DNA from: an uncultured Eubacteriales bacterium
GTDB taxonomy: Bacteria > Bacillota > Clostridia > Oscillospirales > Acutalibacteraceae
Direction of reading: 5' to 3'
Length of the DNA: 64,000 nt
Assembly (NCBI GenBank): GCA_900316025.1
Contig: ONBJ01000003.1
Coordinates: 19,642-83,641 of the forward strand
The notes beneath the pieces were generated by a model. The model worked only from the letters and a program-made list of their open reading frames with translations, did not search any database and was not told where the DNA came from. Each line of letters begins with the position of its first letter. Positions within the stretch are counted from its first letter, which is position 1. Shown here piece after piece: positions 1 to 47,248 of this stretch. Position numbers and translations under genes: made by a program.

Positions 1-4257
<4,257 letters not shown>

Positions 4258-4767: not shown

Positions 4768-6720
4768 TTATACGCTTATTGGTGTGTTCATATCTGCCTG
4801 TGCATTGTTACTGTTGTCTGTGTCGTTACTGCTCATACGGTTTCTGTCCATACCGCCCGGCATACCGCCCGGCATACCGCCCATACCGCTGGATTCTCCG
4901 TATATTATGTCTGTCATTTCAACTGTAGTATCCGTACCGTTTGCTGTCAGAGTGTAGGTTGAACCTTTCTTTATGTCGGGACAGCTTACAACTACCGAAT
5001 TATATGATTTTTCAGGTGTATATGAAGCAATTACATTTCCTGAGCTGTCTTTGAGAATAATTTCTCCGCCTGAGCCTGACTGCGTATTTACCATAATCGA
5101 ACCCTGAGTTGAACTGTTTCCGAAGTTCTGAGCCATTCCGCTTGCACCTGCTGCGATAAATACGCCGCCTGTTATCTGAGCTTCGCCGTTATAGTCCAAA
5201 GCACCGTTGCCGTTGTTGGTAGGGCCGCTGACATAGGTTTCTCCGCCGCTTACGTAAAGATTTCCGTTTGAGTCAACACCGTCACCGTCTGCATTGACTA
5301 TAAGCTTACCGCCTGAAATTTTTATATAGGCGTTGCTGTCAACTGCGAACATATCCTGCTTCATATTTCCGCCGAAGCCGCTTTCATCGTTGCCGCCTGC
5401 TGCGTTAAGACCGTCATCGCTTGCCTTGAGGGTAATATTACCGCCTGAAATATCTATTGACTGTCCCTCTATGCCCTCATAGCTTTCCGTTATGCTGATT
5501 GTACCGCCGCTTATTGCTGTGTTGCTGTCTGCGTGTATTCCGTCATCGCCTGTTTTTATTGTGAAAGTTCCGTTTGAAATGTTTACGTTTGAATTAGAGT
5601 GTACTGCGTCATCAGCTGAGTCCAAGGTAATTGTTCCGCCTGATACCGTTACATTTCCCGAAGCCTTTATACCCTTTGTACTTGTGCTTTCGGAGTCGGA
5701 GCTGCTGTCCTGAGCTGAGTTCTGCATATTGAAGCCTCTGCCGAACATCTGCTCTGATTTCTTTTCAGCGTTGGAGCTTCCGCCGCCTGATGTTATATTG
5801 AAGCTGCCGCCCCTTATGTCTATTGTCAGAGATGCGTCTATTCCGTCACCGTCTGATTTTATATTGAACGTACCGTTTTCGAGGTATACAAAGCCTTTTG
5901 AAGTATCTTCGGTATTTTCAGAGTGTATGCCGTCCTTGCCTGCGTTAAGGTTAAATGTTCCGTTAGCTATGCGTACACTGTCCTTGCCTGAAACTGCGTG
6001 GTTCTGAGCCGTTATATTATATACTCCGCCTGTAAATACTAAGTCATCCTTTGATACTATGCTGTGTCCGTACTTTGCGTTTACGGTAAGCTTTCCTGAA
6101 CCGTTGAATGTAAGGTCGTCCTTTGAGAATATAACCGCATCTATATCATTATCATCTATAGCCTTAAATTCGCTCGTATTTGAAAGTGTGTTTTCGGTAT
6201 TTTCAGCCATAGTTATGAAAACCTTGTCAGCCTGCTTTACATATATTGCTGCACTTGTATCACAGTTTATGCTTACTCCGTTGAGAACAAGCTGTATTTT
6301 GTCGGCTTTGTCAGCGTCTACTATAATCTGACCGTTGCTGAGCTTTCCTGAGAGTATATATGTTCCCTCAGATGTTATTGTTATTGTGTTTCCGCTTACG
6401 CTTACGGACTTGTCGCTGCACTGTGTTCCGTTGTCCGAAAGCGTTATTGCTGTTGAAGCTGATTCATCATATCCGACATCTTTATCTCTGCTTGTGAACA
6501 TACTGTCATCGGAGCTGCTGTCTGATGAATTTGAGGATACTTTTTGTACCGAAGTACCGTCAGAGGAGGCAGACGAAGAGCTTTCCGCATTCTGAGATGT
6601 TTTTGACGTTTCAGAGCCTGAGTTCTGAATATCTGTGCCTGCTGATGTACAGCTGCAAAGTGAAACTGCCATTGCCAATGAAATTATTGCTGATAAAAAA
6701 TGTTTTCTGTTAAAGCTCAT
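4768..6720 (-). CDS. Cthe_2159/DUF4353-type carbohydrate-binding beta-helix lipoprotein
   Basis: Lipoprotein-like N-terminus (AVSLCSC), Ser-rich linker, repeated I-x-GG-x-I-x-I...DDG(I/V)(H/D)S beta-helix turns, G/M/P-rich tail; typical position after DUF4956. Confidence 0.8.
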   Translation of the reverse strand: MSFNRKHFLSAIISLAMAVSLCSCTSAGTDIQNSGSETSKTSQNAESSSSASSDGTSVQKVSSNSSDSSSDDSMFTSRDKDVGYDESASTAITLSDNGTQCSDKSVSVSGNTITITSEGTYILSGKLSNGQIIVDADKADKIQLVLNGVSINCDTSAAIYVKQADKVFITMAENTENTLSNTSEFKAIDDNDIDAVIFSKDDLTFNGSGKLTVNAKYGHSIVSKDDLVFTGGVYNITAQNHAVSGKDSVRIANGTFNLNAGKDGIHSENTEDTSKGFVYLENGTFNIKSDGDGIDASLTIDIRGGSFNITSGGGSSNAEKKSEQMFGRGFNMQNSAQDSSSDSESTSTKGIKASGNVTVSGGTITLDSADDAVHSNSNVNISNGTFTIKTGDDGIHADSNTAISGGTISITESYEGIEGQSIDISGGNITLKASDDGLNAAGGNDESGFGGNMKQDMFAVDSNAYIKISGGKLIVNADGDGVDSNGNLYVSGGETYVSGPTNNGNGALDYNGEAQITGGVFIAAGASGMAQNFGNSSTQGSIMVNTQSGSGGEIILKDSSGNVIASYTPEKSYNSVVVSCPDIKKGSTYTLTANGTDTTVEMTDIIYGESSGMGGMPGGMPGGMDRNRMSSNDTDNSNNAQADMNTPISV

Positions 6721-7402
6721 AAGTATTTACCTCCTGTTTTGATATGCTTATTTCAAGATTTCCGTTTCTGCATCTGAGTTCATCAATGAATTTTTTCTCT
6801 TTTGTTATGTCCTTGAGTGTTATATTGTATGTCAGCTTGAACATACTGCCCATATTTGTAGTCTTTACGGAAGCTATCTCATATTTTTCAGTGTATTCTT
6901 CCATAAGGTCATCGAAAAGGTCGCTGTAGTCCAAATCTTCGGGAATAGTTATTTTCAGTATTTTTTCATTCAATGCGTTTCTGTTTTCACCGAAGCCTGA
7001 TACGTTGCATATGAGAAGTATCACTCCCATAATTATCGAGAACAGGAAGGCATATGCCAGATAACCCATACCTGCTATCATTCCTGCACCCATTGCAAGA
7101 AAGATGGTTGCTATTTCCTTTGCCGTACCAGGTGCGGAACGAAATCTTACAAGTCCGAATGCTCCTGCAACCGCTACACCTGCTCCGACATTTCCGTTTA
7201 CCATCATAATCACTACGCATACCACAGCAGGCAGAACCGTAAGGGTTATGAGAAAGCTTTTTGTATACTTGTTCTTGACCGTGTAGATGAACGAAAGGAA
7301 TATTCCTATAATCAGTGCTGCACCTACGCATAAGATGAAGTTTTCGGGTGATATTACTGCCTGTGTGCTTGTATCAAAAATACCTGTAAAAATGTTGCTC
7401 AT
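6710..7402 (-). CDS. DUF4956 family membrane protein
   Basis: Hydrophobic N-half with GAGVAVAGAFGLVRFRS motif, soluble C-terminal domain; lies between VTC and Cthe_2159-type genes. Confidence 0.85.
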   Translation of the reverse strand: MSNIFTGIFDTSTQAVISPENFILCVGAALIIGIFLSFIYTVKNKYTKSFLITLTVLPAVVCVVIMMVNGNVGAGVAVAGAFGLVRFRSAPGTAKEIATIFLAMGAGMIAGMGYLAYAFLFSIIMGVILLICNVSGFGENRNALNEKILKITIPEDLDYSDLFDDLMEEYTEKYEIASVKTTNMGSMFKLTYNITLKDITKEKKFIDELRCRNGNLEISISKQEVNTYEL

Positions 7403-7426: not shown

Positions 7427-8185
7427 TCATACTGCAACGGGAATGCCTGAATATTCCCTTGTCAGAAAAAGTATCTGTCTGTTTTCATTCTTTGAATGTC
7501 TTTTCTGAATTTCCGCATATGCTGTACCGTACTTTGAAAACGATGTCTTGTAAATTTTGTTTTCGCTGAGAAACCTTGTCAGCCAGAGCGGAATTGCTCC
7601 TGATGTCTTTATTTCCATAAGAGCTTTGTCTTTTCCTAAAATCTCTGAGCCGTAAGCTCCGTTGCAAAGCGAAAGGTCGTAATCTCTCCAGAGTATGTTT
7701 TCGTCAAAGGTTATGCGGAAGTTCTTGTCTGTCTTTGAGTAGAATGCCTCACGCTCATATGAAAGAAATACCTTGGGCTGTAATCCCTCGTAACGCTCAA
7801 AGCAGTAATCAATCTCTCTGCCTATCTGAGAATTAGGCTTTTTTCTCCTTTCACAGAGAAATTTCATTGCCGTTTTTTCTTTCATATCTATTCGCCTTTT
7901 ATATACTACCGAGTCATACTTCTTTTTAAGTTCTACAAAAACGGTGCTTTCTTTATCGGCTGTTCCGTAGCTTCTTACCCTGAGTTTCTCCTTGTACATC
8001 GGTTTGTCTGTCGAACGTCTTATAAGCAGGTAGTTCGGAGTATCAAAATATATGTTGCATATGGTGCTTCTTCCGTATTTGTCTGCCTCCATATTTCCGC
8101 TCATAAGCTGCTTTATAGCTTCTTTCTGCTCTCTTGTGATGAGATACTTTATCTCGTATCTCTTAAATATGTTCTGATAACTCAT
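7427..8185 (-). CDS. VTC-domain (polyphosphate polymerase / TTM fold) protein
   Basis: Motifs KRYEIKY, KEKLRVRSY, VELKKK, YEREAF, RITFD, MEIK, SFSKY; start moved to ATG 8185 (GGAGG 7 nt upstream). Confidence 0.85.
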   Translation of the reverse strand: MSYQNIFKRYEIKYLITREQKEAIKQLMSGNMEADKYGRSTICNIYFDTPNYLLIRRSTDKPMYKEKLRVRSYGTADKESTVFVELKKKYDSVVYKRRIDMKEKTAMKFLCERRKKPNSQIGREIDYCFERYEGLQPKVFLSYEREAFYSKTDKNFRITFDENILWRDYDLSLCNGAYGSEILGKDKALMEIKTSGAIPLWLTRFLSENKIYKTSFSKYGTAYAEIQKRHSKNENRQILFLTREYSGIPVAV

Positions 8186-8211
8186 ATCCATTCCTCCTTT
8201 GCTTTGACTAT

Positions 8212-8244
8212 AGTATATCAGCGGCACTTTAAATGAACCTTAAA
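8212..8244 (-). promoter_or_regulatory. Response-regulator-activated promoter: TTTAAG-N5-TTTAAA box plus extended -10
   Basis: Minus strand TTTAAG GTTCA TTTAAA (8244-8228), 10 bp gap, TGA-TATACT (-10 at 8217-8212); no consensus -35. Confidence 0.6.
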
Positions 8245-8467
8245 TTATAGTTTAAATCTTGATTTTTTATTTAAATTTTTTTATATGCCTTTTACTGCCT
8301 TAAATTGCTTAATATTGCTTGCTTCGATTGTATACTGCGTATTTTAAGTTTAATGATACCTTAAACTTAAAAAATTCTGATTTTTTTAGTTTAAATATTT
8401 ATTTCGGCAATTATCTCTTTATTTTTTGCGTTTAATTTGCTATAATGCAGTAAAGACGGATATTCTG

Positions 8468-8610
8468 GCTTGCGGATACGCTCGGGCGGCGATTGCAGAT
8501 CGCCGCAGATTTTATCTGCGGCGGTTCATTGATGATTTGAAAAATCATCAATGAACGTCAAAAGCATAGCTTTTGACATCTGCAATCGCCGCCCGAGCGT
8601 ATCCGCAAGC
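8468..8610. repeat. Four-way-junction (cloverleaf) element B1
   Basis: 33-bp perfect outer stem (8468-8500/8578-8610) enclosing three abutting perfect hairpins 8501-23, 8524-56, 8557-77. Confidence 0.95.
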
Positions 8611-8641
8611 TTATTTAATACAAAGAGGAGAGCGTAAGCGA

Positions 8642-9724
8642 ATGAAAACGGTAGATTTGGTTGTACCCTGCTACAATGAAGAGGACGGACTTTCTTTATT
8701 TGTAGAGGAAACAACAAAGGTAATAAATACGATAAAGGGATATAAATTCAGGTTCATACTTGTAAATGACGGAAGCAAGGACAATACTTACGGAGTAATG
8801 AAGGAGCTTGCAAAAAAATACGGGAATGTGCAGTACATTTCCTTTTCAAGAAATTTCGGAAAAGAATCAGCTATGTATGCAGGTTTCAAATATTCAAGTG
8901 CGGATTATGTGGTTGTTATGGACGCAGACCTTCAGCACCCGCCCAAAATGATAATTGATATGTGCAAGGCTATGGAGGAGGGATATGACTGCTGTGCGGC
9001 GAGAAGGACAAGCCGTGAGGGCGAATCGAAAATAAGGAGCTTTTTTTCGAGAACGTTCTACAGGATAAGCAACAGCATATCGGAAGTAAAAATGCCTTAC
9101 AATGCGGTTGACTACAGAATGATGTCACGACAGATGGTAGATGCGATAGTATCGCTTGGAGAAGTACAGAGATTTTCAAAGGGACTTTTCAGTTGGGTAG
9201 GCTTTGATACAAAATGGCTTCCCTATGAAAATATAGAGCGTACAATAGGAACTACTAAATGGAGTTTCTGGGGACTTTTCAAATATGCAATAGACGGCTT
9301 TGTATCGTTTACAGTATCACCGTTAAGACTGCTGTCGGGTATAGGTTTTATGTTTTCGGGAGTTGCATTTATCTATATAATCATAACACTTATAAAGACG
9401 CTTATATTCGGGATTGACGTTCCGGGTTATGTAACAACTCTTTGTGCTGTACTCCTGTTGGGCGGAGTGATAGAGCTTTCCATAGGTATTCTCGGCGAAT
9501 ATATAAGCAGGATTTTTCTTGAAAGCAAGAAGCGACCTATATTCATCGTCAAGGACAGCAACGTGAGCGATACGGCTGACAGCACAGATACAGCCGAAAA
9601 TGAAGAAACCGCTCCCGATGACGATAAGGAAAAAGAACAGGAAAGTTCAGAAAAATCAGTCGGTGATAAAAAAGAAGAAGCTGACAGTGAAAAGGTTGAG
9701 TACGATTTCAGTTATTTTGAATAA
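8642..9724 (+). CDS. GT2 family undecaprenyl-phosphate glycosyltransferase (GtrB-like)
   Basis: VPCYNEE, VNDGSKD, SRNFGKE, MDADLQHPP; two C-terminal TM helices; start moved to 8642 (GAGGAG RBS). Confidence 0.9.
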   Translation: MKTVDLVVPCYNEEDGLSLFVEETTKVINTIKGYKFRFILVNDGSKDNTYGVMKELAKKYGNVQYISFSRNFGKESAMYAGFKYSSADYVVVMDADLQHPPKMIIDMCKAMEEGYDCCAARRTSREGESKIRSFFSRTFYRISNSISEVKMPYNAVDYRMMSRQMVDAIVSLGEVQRFSKGLFSWVGFDTKWLPYENIERTIGTTKWSFWGLFKYAIDGFVSFTVSPLRLLSGIGFMFSGVAFIYIIITLIKTLIFGIDVPGYVTTLCAVLLLGGVIELSIGILGEYISRIFLESKKRPIFIVKDSNVSDTADSTDTAENEETAPDDDKEKEQESSEKSVGDKKEEADSEKVEYDFSYFE

Positions 9725-9742
9725 AGCAGAGAGGAAAAATAA

Positions 9743-10222
9743 ATGGGAGAGTTTTTGAAAAATTTTTTTGATATAAAATTCTGGAAATTCATACTGGTTG
9801 GAGTTCTGAATACCATTGTAGGAACAGGACTTCAGTTTGTTCTGTACAATTTTACGCCTTTGCAGGGAATGTCGCAGAAGGGAACATTTATTGCTTCGGC
9901 TGTATCATATTTTCTTGCCAGCATTATGAGCTATTTCCTGAACAAATATTTCACGTTCAAAAATAATGAAAAAGGCTGGAAACCTGTTGTAAGATTTGCG
10001 GTAAATATAGCTGTATGTTATGCTATAGCTTATGGTCTGGCAATTCCTCTTACTTCGTATATATGCACGTCAAACAATATAACAATGTTTGGCTGGAAGG
10101 TTGATGTTTTCGCACAGAATGCCTCTATGGTGATAGGAAGCTGTCTTTTTGTAGCTCTTAACTATATAGGTCAGAGATTTTTCGCATTCAAAAGTACGGA
10201 GGAAGCTGTATCGGAACAGTGA
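9743..10222 (+). CDS. GtrA family flippase-like membrane protein
   Basis: KFILVGVLNT...SYFLNKYFTF...VRF pattern, about 4 TM; next to GtrB-like gene. Confidence 0.85.
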   Translation: MGEFLKNFFDIKFWKFILVGVLNTIVGTGLQFVLYNFTPLQGMSQKGTFIASAVSYFLASIMSYFLNKYFTFKNNEKGWKPVVRFAVNIAVCYAIAYGLAIPLTSYICTSNNITMFGWKVDVFAQNASMVIGSCLFVALNYIGQRFFAFKSTEEAVSEQ

Positions 10223-22226: not shown

Positions 22227-22323
22227 GCGATTGCAGCCCGTTTCGGACATCTGTCCGAAACGAACTTTCAAGCCTAGGCTTGAAAGTTGACAAAAGCGTA
22301 AAGCTTTTGTCGGCTGCAATCGC
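22227..22323. repeat. Four-way-junction element B3
   Basis: GCGATTGCAGCC/GGCTGCAATCGC outer stem; abutting hairpins 22239-62, 22263-88, 22289-311. Confidence 0.9.
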
Positions 22324-28571: not shown

Positions 28572-28918
28572 TGTATATTACCCTTTCGCAGTAAGCATAT
28601 TTCTACAGGCACTCCGTCACACAGAAAGGAACGTCCGTAAGGTATGCTGAAGATTTTTAATCAAGCCCCGAATATATAATATCACAAATTTTGCCTGAAT
28701 AAAATATATTTAAGAAAAATTTATGAATAAACCCCAAAATTAATATATAAATAATATTATGGACTTACTCAGTTTAAAATTAATTTTTATAACTGAGGTT
28801 GACATTTTATAGCTTATTGATACAATAAATGTAGGAAAATTGCCTTTGGTCATAGATAACTGCTTACATCAGCAAGAGCAGGACAAAAAAAGAGAAAATG
28901 TGAAGTTACGGAGATTTT

Positions 28919-30172
28919 ATGGAATATTTTGAAAATGAGAAGAAACAACAGAGAGTACTGCTGGTATGTGTGGATACAGGAGAATATGATGCACAGTCAT
29001 CGCTTGACGAGCTTTGGGAGCTGAGCGAAAGTGCAGGAGCAGAGCCTGTCGCAACGCTGACGCAGAAAAAAGACAGACCTGATACCGCAACCTATGTAGG
29101 AAGCGGCAGACTTGAAGAAATAAAGAACTTTTGCGAAAATCAGGATATAGATGTTCTGATTTTTGACTGTGAGCTTACACCGACACAGATAAGGAACATC
29201 GAGCAGGCAACGGGAATACGCACAATAGACCGAACAATGCTTATACTGGATATATTTGCACTAAGGGCAAGGAGTAAGGAAGGTAAGCTTCAGGTAGAGC
29301 TTGCTCAGCTTAACTATATGCTGCCAAGACTTACCGGTAAGGGAGCGGAGATGTCACGTCTTGGCGGAGGAATAGGTACGAGAGGTCCCGGAGAAACAAA
29401 GCTTGAAACAGACAGAAGGCATATACGCCGCCGTATGGAAACGCTCAAAGAACAGCTCAAAGATGTAAAGCAGCACAGGGATATGCTGAAAAGCAGAAGA
29501 AAAAAGGACGGAGTAATAACTGTTGCTATAGTAGGATATACGAACGCAGGAAAATCAACACTTATGAACTGTCTTACTGATGCAGGAGTACTTGCCGAGG
29601 ATAAGCTTTTTGCCACGCTTGACCCGACATCAAGGGCGTTGAAGCTTCCGAACGGTGTAAGTGTTATGCTTACGGATACGGTAGGACTTGTAAGACGGCT
29701 TCCGCACCATCTTGTAGAAGCATTCAAATCCACACTTGAAGAAGCGGCTGAGGCTGATATAATACTTAATGTATGCGATGCGTCCTCTGAGGAAGCATAT
29801 CTTCACCTTGATGTTACAAGGGAGCTTTTCGAGAGCTTAGGCTGTACATCTTCGCCTATAATACCCGTACTCAACAAATGGGACAGAGTAAATGAAAAAA
29901 GCGGAGTAATTCCTATGGTGAGCGGAGCGGTAAGAATTAGTGCCATAAACGGAACAGGTATAGATAAACTTCTGGAAAGAATAGAGGAAAATCTTCCTGT
30001 AGAGATAAGGCGTGTAAAACTGCTCATACCGTTTGACAAGGGAAGAATTGTGGCAGAGGTGCGTGAAAAAGCTACTCTGCTTGAAGAAAAGTACAGTGAA
30101 AACGGAATAGTCATAACAGCACTTTTAAAGCCTGATATGTACGGCAGGCTGAAAGAATATGTCGTTGACTGA
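28919..30172 (+). CDS. hflX: GTPase HflX
   Basis: GIGTRGPGETKLE, VGYTNAGKS, LFATLDPT, DTVG, NKWD. Confidence 0.97.
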   Translation: MEYFENEKKQQRVLLVCVDTGEYDAQSSLDELWELSESAGAEPVATLTQKKDRPDTATYVGSGRLEEIKNFCENQDIDVLIFDCELTPTQIRNIEQATGIRTIDRTMLILDIFALRARSKEGKLQVELAQLNYMLPRLTGKGAEMSRLGGGIGTRGPGETKLETDRRHIRRRMETLKEQLKDVKQHRDMLKSRRKKDGVITVAIVGYTNAGKSTLMNCLTDAGVLAEDKLFATLDPTSRALKLPNGVSVMLTDTVGLVRRLPHHLVEAFKSTLEEAAEADIILNVCDASSEEAYLHLDVTRELFESLGCTSSPIIPVLNKWDRVNEKSGVIPMVSGAVRISAINGTGIDKLLERIEENLPVEIRRVKLLIPFDKGRIVAEVREKATLLEEKYSENGIVITALLKPDMYGRLKEYVVD

Positions 30173-45147: not shown

Positions 45148-45154
45148 CTGAGCA

Positions 45155-45254
45155 GTGCGATTGCAGCACTCAAAATGCAGGCATTTTGAGCGTTACAAGT
45201 GCTACGCACTTGTAACGGACTGCAAACAAAGTTTGCAGTCCGCTGCAATCGCAC
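45155..45254. repeat. Four-way-junction element B6
   Basis: GTGCGATTGCAGC/GCTGCAATCGCAC; hairpins 45169-90, 45191-217, 45218-40. Confidence 0.9.
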
Positions 45255-45314
45255 ACCTGAGAATGTGCGTTGCCGAAGAGGTGTTTCAGCGAAAAATGAT
45301 AAGGAGAGAATAAT

Positions 45315-45989
45315 ATGAGATTGCTTTTAGCGGAAGATGAAAAGGAACTTTCAAGGGCATTGGTAACGATACTCAAGCACAACAATTATTCCGTAGATGC
45401 GGTATATAACGGAGAGGACGCACTGGACTATATAGAAAGCGGGGTTTATGATGGTGTAGTGCTTGACATTATGATGCCTAAAATAGACGGAATAACAGTT
45501 TTAAAGACCATACGAAAAGAGGGAAACTCCGTACCTGTAATACTGCTTACAGCAAAATCCGAAATTGAGGACAAAGTACTCGGACTTGACTGCGGTGCGG
45601 ACGATTATCTTACAAAGCCGTTTTCGGCTAAAGAGCTTCTTGCAAGAATACGTGCTATGACACGAAAAAGAACGGAAGCTAATAATTCCGTAATCAGCTT
45701 TGAAAATATAAAGCTTGATACATCAACCTTTGAGCTTTCATCACCCAACGGAAGTTTAAGGCTTGCAAACAAGGAATTTCAGATGCTTGAAATGCTGATG
45801 AAAAATCCGGGAAGAATAATTTCAACAGAAACGTTTATGGAAAAAATATGGGGATATGACAGCGATACAGAGCTAAGCGTAGTATGGGTATACATATCAT
45901 ACATAAGAAAGAAGCTGTCATCACTTGATGCAAAGGTGCAGATAAAAGCTGTAAGAAACAGGGGATATTCTCTGGAGGCTTCAAAATGA
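45315..45989 (+). CDS. OmpR/PhoB family response regulator, CiaR-like
   Basis: LDIMMP phospho-site, GADDYLTKPF, WGYDSDTELSVVWVYISYIRKKL recognition helix. Confidence 0.92.
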   Translation: MRLLLAEDEKELSRALVTILKHNNYSVDAVYNGEDALDYIESGVYDGVVLDIMMPKIDGITVLKTIRKEGNSVPVILLTAKSEIEDKVLGLDCGADDYLTKPFSAKELLARIRAMTRKRTEANNSVISFENIKLDTSTFELSSPNGSLRLANKEFQMLEMLMKNPGRIISTETFMEKIWGYDSDTELSVVWVYISYIRKKLSSLDAKVQIKAVRNRGYSLEASK

Positions 45990-47248
45990 TAAAAAAGCTC
46001 AGAAAAAAATTTATAGCCATAGCTATGATTTCGGTGATTGTTGTGCTTACCGTCATAATGACTGCGATAAATATTGCCAATTTCATAAGCATAGACAGCA
46101 ACGCACAGAAGCGAATTGAAATACTTGAGGAGAACGGCGGAAAATTTTCTGATAAGCCTTTTTTCAGGGACAGAGAAGACGATTTCAAAGAGAATAAGCT
46201 GTCACCTGAAATGCCGTTTGAAACAAGATACTTTACCGTAACTCTTGACAGTAACGCAAACGTTTCCGAAATAAATACAGGAAGGATAGCTGCGGTATCT
46301 TCATCGGCGGCAGAAGATTATGCCAAAAAGCTTTACGAAGAAAACAGAGAAAAAGGTTTTATAGAAACTTATAAATATACACGTACAGAATCCGACGGAA
46401 AAATAATGTATATTTTTCTTGACATAGGCAGAGAGCTTGATACCTTTTATTCCTTTTTTACAGCAAGCGTAATTATAAGCTTGGCAGGAAGTCTGCTTGT
46501 ATTTATAATGGTAGTTATTTTCTCGTCCATAGCTGTAAGACCTGTCGCACAGAGCTATGAAAAGCAGAAAAGATTTATAACAGACGCAAGTCACGAGATA
46601 AAAACCCCTCTTGCAATAATAGATGCGAATGCAGAGGTTATCGAGATGATAGACGGCGAAAACGAATGGACGCAGAGTATAAGAAAACAGATAAAGCGGC
46701 TTACATCACTTACCGAAAAGCTTGTATATCTTTCAAGAATGGACGAGGACGGATATGAAATGCAGATGGTAAGCTTTGATATTTCTCAGGCGACGGAGGA
46801 AATGACGGAGCTTTTCAATACAGCGTCACAGGCAAGAGGAATAAAACTGAAAACAGAAGCGGAAGCAGGTCTGAGCTGTTACGGAAACGAAGCGGCAATC
46901 CGTCAGCTTATTTCCATAATGATGGACAATGCCCTGAAATATACAAACGAAAACGGAGTTATAGAGGTAAAGCTTAAATCCGCAGGCAGGAGCAGAATAA
47001 TGACCTTCTACAATACCGTTGATGAGATAGAAAAAGGAAAGCTTGAATTTCTTTTTGAAAGGTTTTATCGTCTGGATAAGTCAAGAAATTCCGAAACAGG
47101 AGGACATGGTATAGGTTTATCCGTAGCCAAAGCCATAACAGAGGCACACGGAGGAAAAATTTCAGCGGAGAGCACTGACGGAAAGAGTATTATCTTCACG
47201 GTAACACTTAAAAATATCCCTAATGATAAAAAAGGAAATAAATTATGA
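45986..47248 (+). CDS. Sensor histidine kinase (2 TM, extracellular sensor)
   Basis: FITDASHEIKTPL, MDNALKY, FERFYRLDKSR, GHGIGLS. Confidence 0.93.
   Translation: MIKKLRKKFIAIAMISVIVVLTVIMTAINIANFISIDSNAQKRIEILEENGGKFSDKPFFRDREDDFKENKLSPEMPFETRYFTVTLDSNANVSEINTGRIAAVSSSAAEDYAKKLYEENREKGFIETYKYTRTESDGKIMYIFLDIGRELDTFYSFFTASVIISLAGSLLVFIMVVIFSSIAVRPVAQSYEKQKRFITDASHEIKTPLAIIDANAEVIEMIDGENEWTQSIRKQIKRLTSLTEKLVYLSRMDEDGYEMQMVSFDISQATEEMTELFNTASQARGIKLKTEAEAGLSCYGNEAAIRQLISIMMDNALKYTNENGVIEVKLKSAGRSRIMTFYNTVDEIEKGKLEFLFERFYRLDKSRNSETGGHGIGLSVAKAITEAHGGKISAESTDGKSIIFTVTLKNIPNDKKGNKL

Follow-up and report, generated by a model that had tools for sequence, protein, structure and literature searches.

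What controls the operon that begins with a VTC-domain gene in this uncultured Eubacteriales bacterium? The original prediction was that a direct repeat in its promoter ties it to a two-component system encoded 37 kb away. VTC-DUF4956 operons are found widely among the Clostridia of gut and rumen, and our literature search found no paper on their function or regulation, or on a link between them and a two-component system; a paper on C. perfringens lists VTC and CotH genes and does not cover their regulation. In the 64,000-nucleotide stretch of DNA that we analyzed (hereafter the window), the operon lies on the minus strand and comprises three genes. The first encodes the VTC-domain, polyphosphate-polymerase-like protein (7427..8185; PF09359, E = 1.6e-45). 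It is followed, here and in relatives, by the gene of a DUF4956 membrane protein (6710..7402; PF16316). The third gene encodes a beta-helix protein of the Cthe_2159 family (4768..6720; PF14262, E = 1.3e-101), overlaps the DUF4956 gene by 11 nt, and is co-located with these genes in relatives as well. A Shine-Dalgarno sequence (AAGGAGG, 8193..8199, minus strand) precedes the ATG at 8185 by 7 nt. The other possible ATG of the VTC gene, at 8191, is missing from the closest relative.

Upstream of this start codon, on the minus strand, we found the 17-bp direct repeat TTTAAG-GTTCA-TTTAAA (8228..8244), with the distal hexamer at 8244..8239 and the proximal one at 8233..8228. A spacer of 10 nt (GTGCCGCTGA, minus strand) separates this box from an extended -10 element, TG-A-TATACT (8212..8220, minus strand), which is itself 26 nt away from the start codon. 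When read on the minus strand, the coordinates originally given for the box, its N5 and its 10-nt spacing to the extended -10 proved exact. The box had also been proposed to stand in for the -35 element, and two results agree with this: inspection of the promoter sequence revealed no TTGACA-like hexamer 16-18 nt upstream of the -10, and a scan with the sigma-70 consensus returned no -35/-10 pair for the VTC gene. The box occupies the -35 position and is a predicted site for a response-regulator dimer. From the geometry of the promoter, transcription is predicted to start at 8205 (minus strand), ~7 nt after the -10. A search of the whole window with Rfam gave just a tRNA and the S10-Clostridia leader, with no match at the VTC promoter.

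A third hexamer upstream of the box had been pointed out as well. It is present (TTTAAA, 8251..8256, minus strand) and starts 12 nt before the distal hexamer, rather than 11. It is kept only in the relative that is 92% identical and is absent from the other promoters of the genus. We thus rejected this hexamer and the further TTTAA words between 8260 and 8400 as extra binding sites, because their conservation stops at the nearest relative, and a functional role of the third hexamer found no support.

The candidate partner of the box is encoded by two genes on the plus strand, 37 kb away from the VTC operon. The first (45315..45989) encodes an OmpR-family response regulator of 224 aa, in which Pfam models identify a receiver domain (PF00072, 4.8e-32) and a winged-helix domain (Trans_reg_C, PF00486, 6.1e-22). 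Its predicted phospho-acceptor is D51, its recognition helix is VVWVYISYIRKKL, and it is the predicted binder of the box. The original prediction had likened a peptide of this regulator to one of the streptococcal regulator CiaR. The former (WGYDSDTELSVVWVYISYIRKKL) is indeed found in the product of 45315-45989, the latter was confirmed in public Streptococcus genomes, and the two have 16 of 23 residues in common. The second gene (45986..47248) encodes the cognate histidine kinase, also recognized by Pfam, a protein of 420 aa with two membrane helices and no HAMP linker. Hydropathy places these helices at about 5-37 and 154-190, with an outside loop of ~118 aa between them. The window regulator is one of seven OmpR-family regulators encoded in the genome. 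Both it and CiaR score below every equivalog cut-off of the curated NCBIfam collection, which has no CiaR-specific model, so these models yield no family assignment. No copy of the box was found upstream of the regulator gene (45148-45314), where there is a repeat element instead. Hence, there is no sign of the autoregulation that such systems usually show.

This repeat element also occurs close to the VTC promoter. It is intergenic, measures ~90-95 nt, and is present in about 160 copies in the 2.08 Mb of the genome. In the window, it occupies 8470-8615, further copies start near 22228, 30459, and 43235, and another lies at 45158-45251. A conserved outer inverted repeat (CGATTGCAG...CTGCAATCG) surrounds three short hairpins, so that a cloverleaf or four-way junction is the fold expected of the DNA or RNA. 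The sequences of the hairpins differ between copies and recur as types. We found no Rfam match for this element. One copy lies in the leader of a glycosyltransferase gene divergent from the VTC gene, another immediately precedes the regulator gene, and a third is located upstream of a second OmpR-family regulator gene, on contig C50. The divergent glycosyltransferase-GtrA operon (8642-10222) has an extended -10 of its own (TGcTATAAT, 8438-8446, plus strand) and a leader of ~190 nt that consists almost wholly of the cloverleaf repeat.

To assess the link between the pair and the operon, we turned to related genomes. The window regulator is 62-80% identical, and the kinase 38-64% identical, to the members of pairs from VTC-linked systems. 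In four genomes (G004, G019, G014, and G035), the VTC-adjacent regulators show 67-77% identity to the window regulator and at most 50% identity to the genome's six remaining regulators of the OmpR family, and the kinases of these pairs are 42-54% identical to the window kinase. The genes are co-directional in G004, which belongs to the same genus, in the order regulator, kinase, VTC; in G019, G014, and G035, the regulator and kinase genes are divergent from the VTC operon. A survey across the order, covering 301 genomes, revealed 26 further carriers of an ortholog of the regulator (62-68% identity) in 24 genera. The VTC-DUF4956-Cthe_2159 operon lies within 6 kb of the regulator in 15 of these 26, where the chance for a 12-kb neighborhood is below 1%, and the Cthe_2159 gene alone is nearby in 2 more. 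No operon is nearby in the other 9 carriers; 8 of these have their VTC gene at another place, and 4 of the 8 promoters keep the box. One genome, G127, has its VTC gene ~37 kb from the regulator on the same contig, as in the genome studied here. The question whether orthologs of the pair adjoin VTC operons in other Clostridia, raised with the original prediction, can thus be answered in the affirmative, both for the order and, with G004, for the genus. In a maximum-likelihood tree, the window regulator falls inside a clade of 33 entries (support 99/97), most of which are VTC-adjacent regulators.

The two partners also tend to occur together. Among 19 genomes of the genus, 8 have both the regulator and a box-bearing VTC gene, and 9 have neither. 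In the other 2, which are incomplete (76% and 84%), the regulator is found alone, and a box-bearing VTC gene is found in no genome that lacks the regulator. The pairing is not absolute, since G037 and G031 have box-bearing VTC promoters and no regulator above 48% identity, and G021 and G312 have the regulator and no VTC gene.

If the box is an operator, it should stand out in the promoters of orthologous genes. We examined the regions upstream of VTC orthologs from 40 related genomes. In six promoters of the genus (60-77% protein identity), the box is the only conserved block within otherwise unalignable intergenic DNA; in the genus alignment, this block reads (A/T)TTTAAAGTTCA(C/T)TTAAAGT, then TAnACT. 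The genus consensus has TTTAAA in both hexamers; several other lineages of the order do have the final G. In 21 of the 26 VTC promoters linked to the regulator clade, the -10 is preceded at 9-10 nt by a TTTAAG-like repeat with N4 or N5, a configuration that arises in 3.5% of mononucleotide shuffles; these conservation counts come from related genomes and are therefore non-independent samples. The -10-like hexamer of clade-linked promoters ends 6-41 nt (mostly 20-35) before the start codon. Most orthologous promoters have the box and neither a TGn motif nor a -35 (e.g., G004, G015, G019, G099, and G224), and hence would need an activator.

Two genus relatives have an orthologous regulator gene with an internal stop codon, TGA in G014 (C38:18143-18688) and TAA in G015 (C8:52283-52951). 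Both retain the VTC operon. The box is degenerate in G014, where the second hexamer is ATTATG, and intact in G015 (TTTAAA-N5-TTTAAA). These stops may reflect decay of the circuit or assembly errors.

One might ask whether another regulator of the same genome binds the box. Regulators of a sister clade also adjoin VTC operons, and the promoters there have the same geometry with other words: TTCAAT-N5-TTCAAT in G001, G002, G007, and G013, and TTTCAG-N5-TTTCAG in G034 and G040. The word of the box thus tracks the clade of the regulator, which argues that the neighboring regulator is the one that binds, and that boxes of the TTTAAG type go with the clade that includes the 45315 regulator (clade A). 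The strongest competitor is the paralogous C50 regulator, which could bind the box either alone or in addition, the 45315 pair then having another target. When CiaR is compared with this genome, the C50 regulator comes first (41%, 184 bits) and the window regulator second (38%, 160 bits), so that C50 would, under this alternative, be the true CiaR of the organism. Moreover, the clades of the two regulators are sisters in the tree, and G037 and G031 keep the box although they lack a clade-A regulator. However, almost all genomes of the genus have a C50 ortholog, among them four complete genomes without any VTC gene, and a paralog that is present regardless of VTC is a poor candidate for the binder. 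VTC-adjacent regulators of the C50 clade accompany TTCAAT or TTTCAG repeats instead, TTTAAG-type promoters adjoin clade-A regulators only, and the recognition helix of C50 (NAEVYVSFTRKKI) resembles that of CiaR less than the helix of the window regulator does. We therefore regard binding by the C50 regulator as unlikely. In related genomes, it is the orthologs of precisely the 45315 regulator and its kinase that adjoin VTC operons, and not those of the six remaining OmpR-family regulators.

The genome carries a second, paralogous operon, CotH-VTC-DUF4956 (L001 7407-13170, i.e., C89:13406-19169), whose VTC protein is 45% identical to that of the window. In its promoter, CTTCAG-N5-CTTCAG is followed at exactly 10 nt by a perfect TATAAT (L001 10680-10712, minus strand); the word of this box matches that of VTC operons adjoining regulators of the C50-like clade in other genomes. 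The operon is divergent from the genes of an unrelated OmpR-family regulator and a 564-aa kinase. We considered this C89 regulator as a binder of the window box and rejected it: it shows 28-35% identity to the VTC-linked regulators with which it was compared, and the intergenic repeat next to it is a different one (CTTCAG-N5-CTTCAG).

Coming back to the 45315 pair, very probably the one for which the box is the docking site, the following course of events can be proposed. The kinase would sense an extracytoplasmic cue through its ~118-aa loop and phosphorylate the regulator on D51. The phosphorylated regulator would then bind as a head-to-tail dimer to both hexamers, directly next to the -10 where a -35 would otherwise lie, and recruit RNA polymerase by class II activation, as described for streptococcal CiaR promoters. 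In this scheme, the sensor pair would act in trans, from a distance of 37 kb. As for the signal, the cues proposed at first (envelope, cation, or phosphate) are speculative.

Does binding activate or repress? An extended -10 of the TGn type can work without a -35. The VTC promoter has such an element, so some basal activity is possible, and even repression by occlusion: the box overlaps the space that polymerase would occupy, and a bound regulator might block the enzyme at the extended -10 until a signal releases it. Yet most orthologous promoters with the box have neither TGn nor -35 and would be inactive without an activator, and the same geometry marks promoters that are strongly activated by CiaR (PMC3091779). 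We consequently expect the bound regulator to activate rather than repress, and hold the repressor reading to be quite unlikely.

The bare pattern says little by itself. The window has one TTTAAR-N5-TTTAAR, where 0.21 are expected, and at least one is found in 17 of 100 shuffles. The whole genome (2.08 Mb, 40% G+C) has 8 such sites, which is near the expectation from base composition. Hence, the significance of the box must rest on its position and its conservation. To score candidate sites, we derived a position weight matrix from 8 genomes, with the present one and its 92%-identical relative left out. The window site scores 22.6 bits, the maximum over 4.16 million positions, and the runner-up scores 15.2. 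A genome scan for the box together with a -10, one of the checks proposed earlier, gave just 9 configurations, among which the VTC promoter is the only one with a gene bearing a ribosome-binding site close downstream. This suggests a regulon of one operon, and the VTC promoter looks like the sole strong target of the regulator in this genome, as far as predicted sites can tell. The exact sequence TTTAAG-N5-TTTAAG occurs five times elsewhere in the genome, twice within a tandem duplication by a replicon-like region on contig C28, and none of these five sites has a convincing downstream gene. That the repeat arose by chance in AT-rich intergenic DNA, or is a UP-like element of a general kind that serves no particular regulator, is very unlikely. 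The counts of the bare pattern, in the window as in the genome, do agree with chance, and 8228-8400 has several other TTTAA-containing words, but the box is conserved at its position across genera and families while its flanks are unalignable, it is separated by 7 bits from the next genomic site, and its type differs with the clade of the neighboring regulator.

Two of the other sites can be described further. The tandem duplication on C28 (L164 about 1900-2150, minus strand) has a unit of ~190 nt, and each copy has the exact TTTAAG-N5-TTTAAG and, 11 nt further on, TGn-AATTAT. It is placed between the end of a helicase-like gene and AT-rich TTATATAA repeats that resemble a replication origin. 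We found no downstream gene and no clear terminator there; it could be the promoter of a small RNA or a feature of the replicon. In the window itself, a weak box-like configuration (TTTAAG-N5-TTTATG and, after 9 nt, CAAAAT; 28709-28740, plus strand) lies ~180 nt upstream of a 417-aa open reading frame (28919-30172). It is probably due to chance, because its -10 is poor.

Taken together, we think it likely that the box is the operator of a -35-less, activator-dependent promoter of the VTC-DUF4956-Cthe_2159 operon, run in trans by the pair encoded at 45315-47248. The original prediction that this separated pair controls the operon through the box is backed by four lines of evidence: the gene neighborhoods of relatives, the shared box, the co-occurrence of regulator and box-bearing VTC gene, and the unique top match in the genome.

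Is this arrangement specific to one genome? Sensor and target are separated here and in G127, G169, G151, and G279. With somewhat better than even confidence, we propose that a CiaRH-related clade of regulators acts as a dedicated, essentially single-operon switch of the VTC-DUF4956-beta-helix-lipoprotein module across an order of gut and rumen Clostridia, and that the wiring survives the separation of its parts. If so, the ~118-aa loop would be the receptor for a cue that triggers the making or export of a phosphate polymer, and the function of bacterial VTC proteins would be directly testable through a phosphomimetic regulator. A dedicated pair with a defined operator offers an experimental handle, since the operon should be turned on by a constitutively active form of the regulator, and the sensor loop of the kinase points to an extracellular cue. 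More generally, a motif combined with comparative genomics can re-link a regulator and its target after they have drifted 37 kb apart.

How does this system compare with those already known? The closest comparison is with CiaRH of streptococci. The box of CiaR is NTTAAG-N5-TTTAAG, located 10 bp before the -10, and the final G, invariant in both hexamers, is reported as essential (PMC3091779). The VTC promoter has in common with CiaR promoters the hexamer word, the direct-repeat orientation, the N5, the 10 bp to the -10, and the lack of a -35. There are differences too: the proximal hexamer of the window, TTTAAA, lacks the final G reported to be essential for CiaR, as does the genus consensus TTTAAAGTTCA, and other lineages of the order use N4 spacing, unlike the N5 of CiaR. 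At the protein level, the window regulator belongs to the same OmpR subfamily, as its best match in S. infantis and S. mitis is CiaR (39%, 163 bits; the next match has 131). In the tree, CiaR is sister to the window-regulator and C50 clades together (98/98), and is the nearest characterized relative sampled. However, the reciprocal best match fails, since the reverse search returns the C50 paralog. The recognition helix VVWVYISYIRKKL resembles that of CiaR, with two non-conservative changes (E to W and K to Y), whereas streptococcal CiaR recognition helices vary only between V and I (PMC3091779). The CiaR sequences themselves came from a scan of public genomes with a degenerate pattern for the helix peptide, which matched at least 120 stretches, all of them streptococcal among the matches listed.

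The kinase has the layout of CiaH: two membrane helices, an outside loop, and a DHp domain directly after the second helix, with no HAMP. The helices of CiaH lie at about 17-43 and 179-206, and a junction motif before the H-box is common to both kinases. Their identity is just 29%, over the kinase core. The apparent regulon is the VTC operon alone, as opposed to the ~15 promoters of CiaR, which include those of htrA and the csRNAs, and no autoregulatory box is seen here, whereas ciaRH is autoregulated. The label "CiaR-type" given at first is hence apt for the geometry and the subfamily, and does not extend to one-to-one orthology, to the helix with its two changes, or to the final G of the proximal hexamer. 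As judged from sequence, the system belongs to the CiaRH subfamily and would work like CiaRH, but its regulator is not the CiaR ortholog.

A similar system has been described outside streptococci. BAS0540-BAS0541 of Bacillus anthracis is CiaRH-like; its regulon was predicted with the CiaR consensus, and the phosphorylated protein bound predicted sites in EMSA (PMC4938410). By this description, it resembles the present case in being a CiaR-like regulator outside streptococci with sites predicted from NTTAAG-N5-TTTAAG. Its predicted regulon differs, as it comprises its own gene, ftsA, an RND transporter, and others, and no VTC gene (PMC4938410). The VTC promoter is also like the pho-box promoters of PhoB/PhoP, in which polymerase is recruited through a direct repeat, of 10-11 bp period, that takes the place of the -35. 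Pho boxes have another hexamer word, and none of the PhoB/PhoP models gives the window regulator a score that reaches its curated cut-off. Control by phosphate would suit an operon with a polyphosphate-polymerase-like gene. The sequence features of an OmpR/PhoB class II site are found at the VTC promoter, i.e., a head-to-tail repeat, a period of 10-11 bp, a position abutting the -10, and no -35. The regulatory logic would be that of a textbook class II activator of the OmpR family, an ordinary design to which the present locus adds the arrangement in trans.
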